In this document: positions 13,356 through 64,000 of the stretch, piece by piece
Layout of the letters: every line of letters begins with the position of its first letter
Numbering within the stretch: the first letter of the stretch is position 1
Source of the DNA: Clostridia bacterium
Lineage (GTDB): Bacteria > Bacillota > Clostridia > Christensenellales > CAG-138
Direction of reading: 5' to 3'
NCBI GenBank assembly: GCA_017614315.1
Contig: JAGACA010000020.1
Span: 10,195 to 74,194 of the forward strand
DNA: 64,000 bases
Program-made: the position numbers and the translations under genes
The notes under the pieces: model-generated
What the model was told of the DNA's origin: nothing
Databases searched by the model: none
What the model saw: the letters and a program-made list of their open reading frames with translations, nothing else

Positions 13356-14534
13356 TCAACCTGCGTAATTCACGAAATAATCCTGCACGAGGACGATGGG
13401 CGTGCCCTTGTCGCCCGAGCCCGAGGTCAGGTCGCAAAGCGAGCCGATCAGGTCGGTCAGCATGCGCGGCGTAGTGCCCTCGGAGAGCATGGAGCCCTTG
13501 AGATCCCTGTCCTTCTCGCGGATGCGTTCGCGGATCTTGTCTGCAAGCGCCTCGCCGGAAAGCCCGGCGTAGTCGTTGTCGGCAAGGAACTTGAGCTTCA
13601 GCTCGTTCGGAAGACCGCGAAGCCCGTCGGTATAGCCGGGGGAGACAACGGGATCCGCAAGCTCCCATATCTTTCCGACGGGATCCTTGAATGCGCCGTC
13701 GCCGTAGACCATGGCCTCGACGCGTACGCCGGTACGCTCGTAAACCAGCCCCTGTATGCCGTAAGCGACCTCCCTCGCGTTCCGGGGGAAGAGCTTCACG
13801 AGCTCCTCGGTCGCTTTGTTGGAGCCGAGCAGGCCGTAATCGGGGCAGCAGCCGGAGCCGTTGACCGACTCGTTCAGAATGTCGCAGAGCGTCAGCACGT
13901 TTTTGCCGCCGTGCTTTTTTATGCGGCTCTGCGTGCGCGTCCTCGTGTGGGTGTCGCAGCACAGAACGTCGCCCGTATGCTCAAGTATCACCTCGGGACG
14001 GTTGGAGAATATAATCTCCGCCTCCGCGCCCTCAGCCTCGATGAGCGTCTTATAAAAATCGATGTAGTCTACGCCGGTGAAGGGGTGACGGCACTCGCCG
14101 CCGCAAAGCGCGTAGAACTCTTCGGCGGTGATCACGTCCGCCCATGGATTCACGCCCTTATCCTCCAACACCTCGGGATCGACAAGGTGATTGCCGACCT
14201 CGTCTGAGGGGTAGGAGAGGAGCACGGTGACCTTTTTCGCGCCTCTCGCGATGCCCTTTAAGCAGATGGAGAAGCGGTTCCTCGAAAGTATGGGGAATAC
14301 GACGCCGATATGCGGGCCGAGCTTCGCCTTTACGTCGGCCGCGATATCGTCGACCCTTGCGTAATTCCCGTCGGCGCGCGCGACTACCGCCTCGGTAACG
14401 GCGATGACGTCGCGGTCGTGAAGCGTGAAGCCATCGTTCTTCGCAGCCTCGAGAACGGAATCGACGGTTATTCTAACGATGTCGTCGCCCTGACGGATGA
14501 TGGGCGCGCGGATGCCTCTTGATACGGTTGCCAT
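13356..14534 (-). CDS. CofE-like (F420-0:gamma-glutamyl ligase family) protein
   Basis: The N-terminus GIRAPIIRQGDDIVRITVDSVLEAA...DRDVIAVTEAVVARADG matches the CofE-fold pattern as I remember it. At 392 aa it is longer than archaeal CofE. Confidence 0.55.
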   Translation of the reverse strand: MATVSRGIRAPIIRQGDDIVRITVDSVLEAAKNDGFTLHDRDVIAVTEAVVARADGNYARVDDIAADVKAKLGPHIGVVFPILSRNRFSICLKGIARGAKKVTVLLSYPSDEVGNHLVDPEVLEDKGVNPWADVITAEEFYALCGGECRHPFTGVDYIDFYKTLIEAEGAEAEIIFSNRPEVILEHTGDVLCCDTHTRTRTQSRIKKHGGKNVLTLCDILNESVNGSGCCPDYGLLGSNKATEELVKLFPRNAREVAYGIQGLVYERTGVRVEAMVYGDGAFKDPVGKIWELADPVVSPGYTDGLRGLPNELKLKFLADNDYAGLSGEALADKIRERIREKDRDLKGSMLSEGTTPRMLTDLIGSLCDLTSGSGDKGTPIVLVQDYFVNYAG

Positions 14535-39416: not shown

Positions 39417-39459
39417 ATAATTTTAGTAAAACCGCGTCTTTCCTTGAGGTGGGCGGGAC

Positions 39460-39612
39460 GCGGTCAGCGCCGGGCCCTTACAAAACGGGTGACGAGGACG
39501 GCAGTCATCGAAAGATTCGGCGGATGCTGCCGCGGCGACCGTTCGGCGTGCCGTGAGCGGAAGAGCAAAAAGCGTAATGAAAAGCGTAACAGAGGCTTCC
39601 GCACAGCCGGAC
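39460..39612 (+). ncRNA. glmS ribozyme (GlcN6P-activated self-cleaving RNA)
   Basis: Elements seen: A|GCGCC at 39466-39471; GACGAGG at 39491-39497; helix CGGCAG/CTGCCG enclosing TCATCGAAAGATTCGGCGGATG; and a distal helix GCGGAAG/CTTCCGC (39557-63 / 39596-602). Order and spacing match the Bacillus and Thermoanaerobacter glmS ribozymes as I recall them. Confidence 0.85.
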
Positions 39613-62416: not shown

Positions 62417-62509
62417 GGAGGAGTCGCCTAGTTTGGTCGAGGGCGCACGATTGGAAATCGTGTAACGGTCATAAGCCGTTCGAGAGTTCGAATCTCTCCT
62501 CCTCCGCCA
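62417..62509 (+). tRNA. tRNA-Ser (GGA)
   Basis: GGAGGAGTCGCCTAGTTTGGTCGAGGGCGCACGATTGGAAATCGTGTAACGGTCATAAGCCGTTCGAGAGTTCGAATCTCTCCTCCTCCGCCA. It has a long variable arm and an encoded CCA. Confidence 0.95.
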
Positions 62510-62510
62510 A

Positions 62511-62546
62511 ACTCAAATACCGCCCATACGGGCGGTATTTGAGTTT
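62511..62546 (+). terminator. tRNA-Ser terminator hairpin
   Basis: ACTCAAATACCGCCC-atac-GGGCGGTATTTGAGT-TT, a 15-bp stem. Confidence 0.7.
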
Positions 62547-62681
62547 GGCAGTATGTATCGAAGAGATTCGAAGGGCGGAACAGCGAAGCATCCTGTGGAT
62601 GGTTCGCCCGCCCCGTGTTTTGGTCCCTGCACTTTTTGCGCAGTTCGGAGAACAAGCAAAAATGTGCGATAGGGTCAAAAC

Positions 62682-62702
62682 CGAATCTCTCCTCCTCCGC
62701 CA
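62682..62702 (+). repeat. 21-nt exact direct repeat of the tRNA-Ser 3' end (att-like)
   Basis: CGAATCTCTCCTCCTCCGCCA occurs at 62489-62509 (within the tRNA) and again at 62682-62702. A 16-bp-stem hairpin follows at 62704-62742. Confidence 0.85.
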
Positions 62703-62768
62703 TGCAAAAGACCTCTTTTGTCTACCAAAAGAGGTCTTTTGCAACTAAGTGTTCTGGCAAGCCGGAAC

Positions 62769-62920
62769 GTGAAGCAAGGCTCCGCCTTGTGAAGCGCGCT
62801 TCACGCGTGAAGTGTGCCTTCGGCACGATTGCGGAACACTTAACTTCACTTGCCGCGAAGCGGCAAACTTCACTACGCCGAAAGGCGTAACTTCACTTGC
62901 CCTCAAGGGCAAACTTCACT
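62769..62920. repeat. Array of CTTCAC/GTGAAG motifs interleaved with short sequence-variable GC hairpins
   Basis: AACTTCACT occurs at 62842, 62866, 62889 and 62912, a period of 23-24 nt. The copies are separated by TGCCGC-gaa-GCGGCA, ACGCC-gaaa-GGCGT and TGCCC-tcaa-GGGCA. The left half carries the inverted motif GTGAAG at 62769, 62789 and 62807, plus CTTCAC at 62799, with hairpins CAAGGC-tcc-GCCTTG and GTGCC-ttc-GGCAC. Confidence 0.8.
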
Positions 62921-62994
62921 CTTGAATCATTCGCACTTTTCGAGTAAAATGAAAAAAGAAAAGAGATTGACAAATCGGGATTTGGCGGCGAAAA

Positions 62995-63756
62995 ATGGAT
63001 AAAGCAGTTACAAGGATGATAAAAGAAATAGCTTCAATACTGGAGGGACAAATATACGGCACATGGCTGTACGGAAGCGCGGTATTTGATGATTTCCGAC
63101 CGGGATGGAGCGATATTGATTTCGTTGTGCTGGTCAATGAACCTATCTCTGAGAAACAGGCAGAAAGACTGCTCATGTTGCGGCAGAATATGCTCAAAAA
63201 AGAGCCCGACAACATGTATTACCGCTCTTTTGAGGGTGTTATTGCCAACGTAAATGAGTACCGCAGCCAAGCGTTTCAAAGGCTGGTCTATTGGGGAACA
63301 AGCGGTCAACGTATAACTGACCGTTATACACCCGACCCGTTTTCTTTGTTTGAACTGGCAAAGTATGGGAAACGGGTATACGGCGACAAAGAGTGGATCC
63401 TTTCCGCTCCGGACAACGAAGAACTGGTAGCAGCTGTGCGCGAGCATTATGATTGTATTCGTAAATATGCCGTAGAGACAGATGAAAGCATTTATTCGTG
63501 CGGATGGCTACTGGATATTGCAAGGTGTATTTACACCTTGAGAAATGGCGATGTCATTTCCAAAACACAGGCAGGTCTTTGGGCTATTGGGGAGCATCTT
63601 TTTTCAGATGAAGCTCCGCTGCGGAAAACGATCGAAATCCGGAAAAGCCCTCTTCTATACAAAAACAGGGAAGAAATCCGGCAGTGGCTGAAAGGATTGG
63701 GGCCGGTCGTACAGAGTTACGCGGATGTGTTGGAGCAGGAACTGATAAATGTATAA
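62995..63756 (+). CDS. AadA-like nucleotidyltransferase (NTase domain plus DUF4111-like C-terminal domain); substrate unknown
   Basis: WLYGSAVFDDFRPGWSDIDFVVLV is the NTase GS...D(I)D motif. The C-terminal half follows the pattern of the aminoglycoside adenylyltransferase family. GC is low and the RBS is weak. Confidence 0.6.
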   Translation: MDKAVTRMIKEIASILEGQIYGTWLYGSAVFDDFRPGWSDIDFVVLVNEPISEKQAERLLMLRQNMLKKEPDNMYYRSFEGVIANVNEYRSQAFQRLVYWGTSGQRITDRYTPDPFSLFELAKYGKRVYGDKEWILSAPDNEELVAAVREHYDCIRKYAVETDESIYSCGWLLDIARCIYTLRNGDVISKTQAGLWAIGEHLFSDEAPLRKTIEIRKSPLLYKNREEIRQWLKGLGPVVQSYADVLEQELINV

Positions 63757-63836
63757 ATTCCGGTTTGGCGAGGCGGCAAGAGGCGTTACGTTTGTACCTT
63801 CTTACCTTGATTTCGGTACTTTTATACGCTTTTATA

Positions 63837-63879
63837 CAAAAAAGAACAGGCAGGTGCTTGCACCCGCCTGTTCTTTTTT
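63837..63879. terminator. Bidirectional terminator
   Basis: A6-GAACAGGCAGGTG-cttg-CACCCGCCTGTTC-T6. Confidence 0.75.
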
Positions 63880-64000
63880 GGCGCGCCCTCTTAGTCTGTA
63901 TTCGAACCTTTGAGTTTCCGCGCCGGAGGCGTGGAAACTCGAGTTTCACGCAATCCTATAAAGTCCCCGCTTTCTCATAGTCGGGCGTGAAACAATGTTA

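Follow-up and report, generated by a model that had tools for sequence, protein, structure and literature searches.

Mirrored Gut-1 (RF01706) arms in a Clostridia contig and the association of such arrays with four-helix-bundle protein genes

Gut-1 (RF01706) was described as a probable non-coding RNA from 43 sequences found in human-gut metagenomes only, and its function is not known (Weinberg et al. 2010; PMC2864571). The PF05635 proteins come from open reading frames (ORFs) in the 23S rRNA intervening sequences (IVS) and are homologous to Avd of the diversity-generating retroelements (PMC10053308). The legend of a figure in a large CRISPR-discovery screen names the '23S rRNA IVP' among the domains tied to CRISPR-like repeat arrays (PMC10910872). 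Our search of the literature on the function of Gut-1, RF01706, TIGR02436 and PF05635 found no functional study or Gut-1 follow-up. Here, we analysed an array of short linkers and mini-hairpins in a 64,000-nt stretch from a Clostridia bacterium (contig JAGACA010000020.1, positions 10,195–74,194; hereafter the window). A sequence-only reading of it had recognised no named repeat family, but the array is a diverged copy of the Gut-1 element, a linker variant of a known unexplained family.

In an Rfam scan run at a relaxed threshold, both halves of the array match the full Gut-1 model (1–77). The right arm (62838–62921) does so on the minus strand with 44.7 bits (E = 6e-7), and the left arm (62742–62818, including the flank next to a leading hairpin, hp0) on the plus strand with 31.5 bits (E = 1.3e-3). 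Both scores are under the Gut-1 gathering score of 50 bits. Homologues with the same GUGAAGU linker are above it, with 57.4 bits in L079, 54.2 in L051, 52.0 and 51.0 in L036 and 50.6 in L060. Therefore, this linker class lies inside Gut-1 and the window copy is a diverged member.

The window copy shares with Gut-1 the three short covarying hairpins between four constant 7-mers and the gut Clostridia habitat. Its hairpins 1 and 2 resemble those of Gut-1 even in sequence, but it has GUGAAGU as linker where Gut-1 has GUGAAAU or GUGAUAU. The Rfam model depicts one arm only, as a small RNA (sRNA) with unpaired linkers, whereas the actual unit consists of hp0, a left arm, a long-range helix a:a′ and a right arm. 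In the flanks of the original Gut-1 alignment, the modelled arm (GUGAUAU/GUGAAAU) is almost always followed by an inverted arm (AUAUCAC/AUUUCAC). A hairpin precedes the modelled arm there, and one example lies directly after a tRNA. The Gut-1 identity and the true architecture of the element are well supported, and from what follows we infer a protein-docking step.

The right arm carries four exact copies of AACTTCACT, starting at 62842, 62866, 62889 and 62912. There are no others on either strand of the window, where ~0.5 exact copies of any 9-mer are expected by chance. The copies are spaced by the hairpins TGCCGC-gaa-GCGGCA, ACGCC-gaaa-GGCGT and TGCCC-tcaa-GGGCA. The left arm mirrors this arrangement with three GTGAAG copies and with hairpins that include CAAGGC-tcc-GCCTTG and GTGCC-ttc-GGCAC. 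The sequence-only reading had listed the four positions, a distinct hairpin in each spacer and the mirrored left half, and all of them are present. Its GTGAAGCGCGCTTCAC palindrome exists as sequence but is not a separate feature, being linker 2 plus hairpin 3.

The element is also larger than the 62769–62920 first proposed. It spans ~62703–62920 and comprises hp0, the left arm, the 11-bp long-range helix and the right arm, so hp0, hairpin 1 and a:a′ are added to the earlier extent. The a:a′ helix would enclose the left arm and competes with hairpin 1, and the two are alternatives because a:a′ uses the 5′ strand of that hairpin. Hairpin 3 is (T/C)GCGC-TTC-GCGCG in the relatives, and a single base change has broken its innermost pair in the window copy. 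The 184-nt region folds better than 200 of 200 dinucleotide shuffles on both strands (z = −5.2, −4.1), and no promoter was found inside the element.

A search for such arrays elsewhere had been suggested as a check, and homologues occur in many genomes. A pattern scan with one genome per species gave at least 120 loci, of which at least about 113 are true elements of the same architecture. Nearly all of them come from uncultured Oscillospiraceae, Acutalibacteraceae or Clostridia metagenome-assembled genomes (MAGs) of human and animal guts, and thus share the gut occurrence of Gut-1. Their common layout is hp0-AAC-TAAGT-hairpin 1-GTGAAGT-hairpin 2-GTGAAGT-hairpin 3-GTGAAGT-hairpin 4-a′ in the first half, and a′-ACTTCACT-hairpin 5-ACTTCACT-hairpin 6-ACTTCACT-hairpin 7-ACTTCAC in the second. 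The usual form has 3 + 4 linkers and a length of 164–177 nt.

The hairpins covary strongly, every one of them. Over 66 distinct elements, the stem levels are 85–100% Watson-Crick or G-U paired with 3–4 pair types each, and swapping the 3′ halves between loci lowers the stems of at least 4 bp from 47–97% to 12–63%. For the window copy and its ten closest relatives, 93% of the cells are paired and 20 of the 42 pairs are compensatory, which none of 500 shuffles equalled, while a slid-partner control pairs only 29–48%. The earlier suggestion that the spacers are selected for structure is thus upheld. The a:a′ helix of 11 bp has 99% of its cells paired and two compensatory positions in the close relatives, and it covaries family-wide (TTGCC/GGCAA, GTTCC/GGAAC, TCGCC/GGCGA, GCGCC/GGCGC and TTACC/GGTAA).

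The 7–9 linker copies are identical within a locus and change together between lineages, being GTGAAGT, GTGAAAT(A/C), GTGATAT, ATGAATT, GTGATGT or CGATATA. In this respect, the constant 9-mer does behave like the repeated binding site that had been proposed. The left and right linkers are complementary in every case. In the ATGAATT class (L097 1–1162; L163–L167), the second left linker, ATGATTT or GTGATTT, and the second right linker, AAATCAT, deviate from the others and form a conserved complementary pair, in the same order in both arms. L069 has heterogeneous linkers, whose near-perfect complementarity is best in nested order.

The gene that accompanies these arrays encodes an Avd-like 'four helix bundle' protein of the 23S rRNA intervening sequence protein family (IVP; TIGR02436/PF05635). 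In the fetched loci, 12 of the 15 IVP genes start 16–40 nt past the last linker, with a ribosome-binding site alone between and no space left for a promoter. Two close homologues of the L036 protein have the full GTGAAGT-type pair upstream in all of 16 contexts, mostly as RumA, ~205–220 nt and then IVP. A second IVP clade, ~50% identical, has the full pair upstream in 5 of 5 contexts but with the linkers ATGAATT/AATTCAT. At one and the same RumA locus, the GTGAAGT array occurs together with the first IVP clade in some cases, and the ATGAATT array with the second in others.

The association extends to 80 diverse metagenomic IVP loci (40–87% identity), whose arrays have lineage-specific linkers such as GTGAAAT(A/C) of the canonical Gut-1, GTGATAT found also at Weinberg's tRNA locus, CGATATA, GTGATGT, ATGAAG and others. 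When an array is defined as a 6-mer and its reverse complement occurring at least five times, it is present in 47 of the 65 regions upstream of IVP (72%) against 10 of 285 control regions from the same loci (3.5%). Among the 63 loci for which both flanks are available, 40 have both arms upstream of the gene, 11–12 have one arm on each side of the ORF and 6 have a one-orientation array only. Together with the orphans, the module configurations are L-IVP-R, L-R-IVP and L-R, where L and R are the left and right arms.

Some lineages have no hairpins and carry plain tandem 7–8-mers before the IVP ORF and inverted copies after it. Therefore, what invariably accompanies the gene is the short repeat and not the hairpin. 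By association, the Gut-1-type arrays appear to be inverted-repeat arms of modules around an IVP gene. The window copy itself is an orphan of two arms, and a tblastn search of the whole window found no IVP gene. A nucleotidyltransferase identical to the one next to the window array occurs in the conspecific contig L004, there with an array of the same type that is followed by an IVP gene.

The IVP genes were observed in other settings as well. In the Bacteroidetes-like L231, L236, L240, L241, L245, L248 and L249, the four-helix-bundle gene is inserted a few tens of nt after housekeeping genes, whose C-terminal peptides suggest GyrB, ArgC and HutI, and it has plain tandem 7–8-mers ahead of it and their inverted copies behind it, with no hairpins. 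Both IVP clades have thousands of homologues at 82–100% identity, mostly on contigs shorter than 3 kb (proteins P0001–P0240). Contigs with the hydrogenase gene of the window also end just past tRNA-Ser, and assemblies seem to break at the Gut-1-type arrays.

We propose, with confidence close to but short of even, that the repeated linker is a docking motif for the IVP protein on single-stranded nucleic acid and that the hairpins are spacers. An oligomeric four-helix-bundle protein would recognise the constant 7–9-mer read on a single strand, most likely that of a transcript, and the hairpins would be sequence-free spacers fixing the pitch of the successive motifs. The complementary left and right linkers would offer an alternative, self-paired state. 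At an orphan such as the window copy, any effect would depend on the protein supplied in trans.

This docking appears the most economical reading because the linkers are identical and co-changing, the linker tracks the IVP clade and the repeat outlives the hairpins. A transcript would be the likeliest substrate because the IVP genes are without their own promoter and the element follows the upstream transcription unit. Avd binds nucleic acid. The sole solved relative found by sequence, PDB 2RLD, is an uncharacterised protein with five chains. Among the three readings offered from sequence, a single-stranded motif displayed between hairpins comes closest to this proposal; its protein target is retained as a prediction, and a role as a sponge would be conjecture.

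The 16 elements with a tRNA upstream within 400 nt are all co-oriented with it, none has a tRNA downstream, and in 11 of the 16 the tRNA 3′ end is 42–47 nt before the element with hp0 alone between. The upstream ORF is co-oriented in 75 cases against 17 and the downstream ORF in 45 against 43, while 30 of 69 gene pairs are convergent and 6 are divergent. A strong hairpin (hp0) abuts 91 of 100 homologues and has a T-tract in 21, including the tRNA-adjacent copies and the window. Elements directly after hairpins or terminators and tRNA genes always join as (N)AA followed by CTAAGT.

The upstream genes are unrelated housekeeping genes, and 71 of their proteins spread over 90 Pfam families. Only RumA-like methyltransferases recur, at one conserved orthologous locus, so we rejected a functional tie to the upstream gene. 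We likewise rejected an orientation set by replication, as the local GC skew agrees with the element orientation by only 54 to 39, more weakly than the gene orientation does.

Such placement at 3′ ends, with convergent neighbours far outnumbering divergent ones and the upstream gene co-oriented, would suit a structural RNA element serving as a processing, stability or insulator module, where the IVP gene rides host transcripts and needs processing. It would be the counterpart, in mRNAs and tRNA trailers, of the RNase III-processed stems of the 23S IVS, with paired linkers and a compound fold that is cut or blocks exonucleases. We consider this doubtful. The intercistronic position without a promoter in RumA-array-IVP, the arms around the IVP ORF in the 11–12 loci, the invariable linker complementarity, nested and near perfect in L069, and the good folding of the region all agree with it. 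The inverted repeats of the rRNA intervening sequences likewise bracket their ORF. However, pairing alone needs neither the identity nor the joint change of all 7–9 linkers, and 7-bp helices broken by hairpins are poor RNase III substrates. Moreover, the 21% of copies behind a T-tract terminator, the window one among them, and the loop polarity described next do not suit such an RNA. Many of the 3–4-bp stems are also predicted to be unstable as RNA, hairpin 2 being folded in 41% of the copies at 37 °C.

Each loop was read on the strand that shows its linker as ACTTCAC, which is plus for the right arm and minus for the left arm. Triloops make up 183 of the 322 loops, and 108 of these are C(GNA)G. 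Of 122 tetraloops, 75 are GNNA but only 39 are GNRA, and GATA, GACA, GTCA and GTTA are common. Reading the opposite strand gives zero C(GNA)G or GNNA loops. The same polarity on opposite strands means that the arms are true inverted copies of one kind of unit.

Mini-hairpins of this kind are known as DNA. The d(GCGNAGC)/d(GCGNNAGC) hairpins melt at ~70–76 °C and require a C-G closing pair, while the RNA version r(GCGAAAGC) has a Tm of only 39 °C (PMC13037366; PMC3201870). GCGAAGC is present at 62855–62861 in the window. Nearest-neighbour folding as RNA and as DNA gave no asymmetry of strand or molecule, with parameter sets that evidently are without GNA bonuses. Kissing of the left-arm UNC loops with the right-arm GNA loops found no complementarity per locus above shuffles. 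On the plus strand, the stems have 41 G-T against 27 A-C pairs overall, 33 against 15 in the right arm and 8 against 12 in the left arm, too weak for a strand call.

The arms may instead be a DNA-level element, the terminal inverted repeats of a small selfish or mobile module whose complete form encloses the IVP gene and whose miniature has lost it. They would then be arrays of single-stranded DNA (ssDNA) mini-hairpins or multi-site ends, like those of multi-site transposons or like opposite-strand ssDNA initiation signals. We judge this unlikely, although much agrees with it. Read outside-in, both arms are the same kind of unit down to the loop polarity, as in true terminal inverted repeats, and the loops obey the DNA mini-hairpin rules. 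The three configurations, the swapping of module types at the RumA locus, the placement right after hairpins, terminators and tRNAs with a constant junction, and the mostly short IVP contigs, as expected at repeats, also favour it. So does the identical nucleotidyltransferase gene, which occurs with an array after differing genes and without one.

Nevertheless, no transposase, recombinase or HUH gene was found among the flanking genes examined, nor any target-site duplication at the junctions examined, and the protein is a 117-aa helical bundle without known catalytic activity. The copy number is low, as the 64 kb contain one complete element and contigs of 100–390 kb gave a single pattern hit each, though the copies per genome are a lower bound as the pattern search was not exhaustive. 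Orthologous positions are kept across species with compensatory evolution, which argues for long residence and selection. The element had no blastn match in plasmid and phage collections, and an IMG/VR scan for three spaced ACTTCACT gave 18 matches, all plain tandem repeats without hairpins. The weak tracking of GC skew does not favour a DNA-level role either.

Docking of the IVP protein on the linkers remains our preferred reading, and several points weigh against it. The loops fit the rules for extraordinarily stable DNA mini-hairpins, and a single plus-strand RNA leaves the minus-strand loop constraint of the left arm unexplained. Little plus-strand RNA may reach the arrays of the window and next to tRNAs, as a T-tract terminator stands ahead of them. 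These mirrored DNA-type loops and the copies behind terminators make a DNA-level component or a mobile-module history serious rivals. The registers of left-right pairing conflict, being in the same order in the ATGAATT class and nested in L069.

The protein side has its own difficulties. About 89% of the GTGAAGT-type arrays are without an adjacent IVP gene. The IVP link is one of genomic association, and adjacency by itself would make array and IVP types travel together. A pentameric state would follow from the five chains of 2RLD and from comparison with Avd.

More broadly, and still tentatively, with somewhat less than even confidence, the Gut-1-type arrays and the TIGR02436 proteins may constitute a two-part system. 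An Avd-like oligomer would read the lineage-specific 7–9-mer either between mini-hairpins or, in other phyla, in plain tandem repeats. With or without its gene, the module would have spread to the 3′ ends of tRNA genes and of housekeeping genes in gut Clostridia and in Bacteroidetes-like lineages, and orphan pairs such as the window copy would be miniatures.

Table 1. Coordinates of the element and its neighbours in the 64-kb window.
Feature	Position	Strand	Basis or remark
tRNA-Ser(GGA); upstream transcription unit, element co-oriented	62417–62509	+	ARAGORN; Rfam tRNA 54.4 bits
Exact 21-nt copy of tRNA-Ser 3′ end (CGAATCTCTCCTCCTCCGCCA)	62682–62702	+	Repeat of 62489–62509
hp0: perfect 18-bp hairpin with A-tract, T-tract and TCTAC loop; abuts element	62703–62743	+	Inverted repeat; bidirectional terminator type
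a = CTAAGTGTTC(T)G: degenerate first linker (TAAGT) and hairpin 1 5′ strand	62746–62756	+	Complementary to a′
Hairpin 1, GTTCTGG-caag-CCGGAAC	62751–62768	+	Extra hairpin beyond the extent first proposed
Left arm, hairpins 1–4	62751–62826	+	Linkers GTGAAG 62769, GTGAAG 62789, GTGAAGT 62807
Hairpin 2	62775–62789	+	Left arm
Hairpin 3	62795–62807	+	Left arm
Hairpin 4	62814–62826	+	Left arm
a′ = CGGAACACTTA: centre sequence pairing with a	62832–62842	+	Complementarity, covariation
Right arm: AACTTCACT ×4 and hairpins 5–7	62842–62920	+	Loops GAA, GAAA, TCAA
Hairpins 5, 6, 7	62850–62866, 62874–62889, 62897–62912	+	Right arm
Promoter-like TTGAAT-17-TAAAAT, outside array; −35 starts right after last linker	62922–62950	+	Homology with array-less L006 starts here
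253-aa nucleotidyltransferase, distant AadA/ANT-like, far under NCBIfam cut-offs; neighbour only	62995–63756	+	Profile comparison
~55-nt module sites	Window 63779–63838; L001 10785–10844, 11447–11505, 13348–13404; L004 985–1043, 2188–2246, 3067–3126		

The history of the locus can be partly read from Table 1. The segment 62682–62702, hp0 and the pair correspond in order to the 3′ end of tRNA-Ser and its trailer in L073, L085 and L106, and therefore the pair is at an ancestral tRNA-Ser trailer position. A 193-bp insertion at 62510–62702 rebuilt the tRNA end and pushed the pair away, so that 62682–62702 is the displaced original 3′ end. The insertion has a terminator hairpin at 62506–62549 and ~130 nt more, and it resembles what is left of an element that had integrated at the 3′ end of the tRNA.

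The identical nucleotidyltransferase gene is found after tRNA-Ser, after tRNA-Gln, after the 3′ module of another gene and, in L006, array-less. Some contigs have Gut-1 pairs on both sides of it, the second pair being followed by an IVP gene. The hairpin stems differ by compensatory changes between loci whose nucleotidyltransferase is 100% identical, in at least four contexts (L004–L008). This suggests that the gene unit moved recently between loci or strains.

The same locus bears on two of the earlier proposals, namely that a Rep protein or an integrase of the adjacent island uses the array as iterons or arm sites, or that the array is a 5′ leader of the nucleotidyltransferase gene. The array does adjoin a tRNA with a duplicated 21-nt 3′ end and a strain-variable, cassette-like row of genes, but both are very improbable. 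A look for a Rep or integrase gene just beyond position 64000 had been suggested, and the co-linear contig L001 has neither in the 10 kb downstream; the window diverges from L001 after ~63838. The spacers covary as hairpins, unlike iteron spacers, and most homologues stand among housekeeping genes, with the plasmid and phage collections empty of them. As to the leader, the promoter-like sequence between the array and the gene is of the sigma-70 type, the gene also occurs array-less, and the downstream genes of the family show no orientation bias. Thus, the window array neither regulates the nucleotidyltransferase gene nor marks a Rep or integrase system.

A mimic of the 16S rRNA decoding site was considered too, since GUGAAGU occurs in helix 44 and the gene next to the window array is AadA-like. 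It was rejected, as the linker is GUGAAAU, GUGAUAU or AUGAAUU in other lineages and hardly any copy has an AadA-like gene beside it.

Degenerate copies occur as well. On the minus strand at ~763–862, the window has a Gut-1-like left arm, GTTAGAT-hairpin-ATGAATT-hairpin-ATGAAGT, directly after tRNA-Cys and a terminator (Rfam Gut-1 18 bits, E = 0.5), and the tRNA-Cys position holds full elements in L041, L062 and L139. In L001, the GGDEF gene is followed at 13390–13520 by another Gut-1 pair, which is of the GTGATAT type and whose right arm has decayed. Two linker classes, one of which is degenerate, can therefore be present in the same genome.

The window copy may be largely a relic and functionally silent. 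As a general account, a neutral and decaying intergenic repeat, whose palindromes were perfected by template-switch (quasi-palindrome) correction and which has no function at the window, is improbable. The score of the window copy under the family threshold, the broken pair of hairpin 3, the two degenerate copies and the location between a terminator and a promoter are consistent with it. However, more than 100 species-level genomes have kept the architecture, the linker identity, a:a′ and the loop polarity, and template switching leaves the constant linkers and the bias for C-G-closed GNA loops unexplained.

Several further features of the window were noted. A ~55-nt module ends each gene of the strain-variable row after tRNA-Ser (nucleotidyltransferase, GNAT, GGDEF protein and others), and the divergence from L001 falls exactly past such a module. 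Two direct repeats of ~GGTGTACYTTTNNGCGYTCTT lie within it, its last bases are ...ACA, and a terminator hairpin (TGTCTRCC loop) and a promoter come next. The row resembles a set of gene cassettes that share a site for recombination or processing at their 3′ ends, with no recombinase seen. This 'GTACYTTT' cassette-end module was rejected as part of the Gut-1 element, as it is found in the lineage of the window only.

At 63895–64000, the nested palindrome GAGTTTCC-GCGCC-gga-GGCGT-GGAAACTC precedes GAGTTTCAC ... GTGAAAC, and the window end cuts off the rest. A further repeat element, built on another motif, may begin here. A glmS ribozyme/riboswitch lies at 39455–39612 (Rfam 60 bits; gathering score 37).

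Compared with known repeats, the array is like REP/BIME, BOX and MITE elements in its intergenic location at gene 3′ ends, its rarity between divergent genes, its hairpin richness and its inverted arrangement. A palindromic repeat unit of the REP/MITE type had been named as a possible refutation, but the array differs from such units. It is of low copy, with one complete element and one relic in 64 kb, and the hairpins of one element are all unlike each other and covary from species to species. Conservation lies in the linker and not in the palindrome, and among the flanking genes and junctions examined there is no RAYT or transposase and no target-site duplication.

The ssDNA initiation sites with d(GCGNAGC)/d(GCGNNAGC) hairpins include those of the phages G4, St-1 and alpha3, RSF1010 ssiA/ssiB and the N4 early promoters (PMC13037366). 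The array shares with these sites the C(GNA)G and C(GNNA)G loops with C-G closure, including GATA, GACA and GTTA, on opposite strands per arm. It differs in being chromosomal, gene-oriented and tied to a helical-bundle gene, with no replication or priming context and no primase or Rep gene.

Two other array types and one partition site were rejected. Integron attC sites have R''/L''...L'/R' sites with RYYYAAC/GTTRRRY cores and an IntI gene, but such cores are absent here by inspection and no integrase was found. CRISPR arrays have repeats of at least 23 nt, non-palindromic spacers of ~26–72 nt and cas genes, whereas the present repeats are 7–9 nt, the spacers are 14–15-nt palindromes and no cas genes are in the neighbourhood. 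A resemblance to parS was ruled out by inspection.

Rfam has listed Gut-1 since 2010, as an orphan known from metagenomes only, and the family now has genome-resolved hosts in more than 100 Oscillospirales MAGs. The PF05635/TIGR02436 proteins are abundant and have no known function outside the diversity-generating retroelements. The mirror-pair unit, its hosts and an IVP partner with a clade-matched linker turn these two unknowns into one testable pair. If true, the two-part system would give a function to the '23S rRNA intervening sequence protein' family as well as to the Gut-1 RNA family. As far as the searchable literature goes, three points appear new, namely the mirror-pair architecture, the loop rule of DNA mini-hairpins and the TIGR02436 association.

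Two known systems bear on the proposed docking. TRAP is an oligomeric ring protein that reads spaced short RNA repeats on the trp leader, and by functional analogy only, the array would offer identical short motifs at regular spacing to an oligomeric partner. Its spacers differ in being 11–17-nt hairpins, an inverted complementary arm is added and the binding is a prediction here. Relative to the 23S rRNA IVS with its S23p/IVP ORF and to Avd, the array element is outside rRNA, its arms are short-repeat arrays with or without mini-hairpins, no reverse transcriptase is nearby and the window copy is without an ORF. Still, the array-associated gene belongs to the same protein family, and its ORF lies between two arms in 11–12 of the 63 array loci, as in the 23S rRNA IVS.

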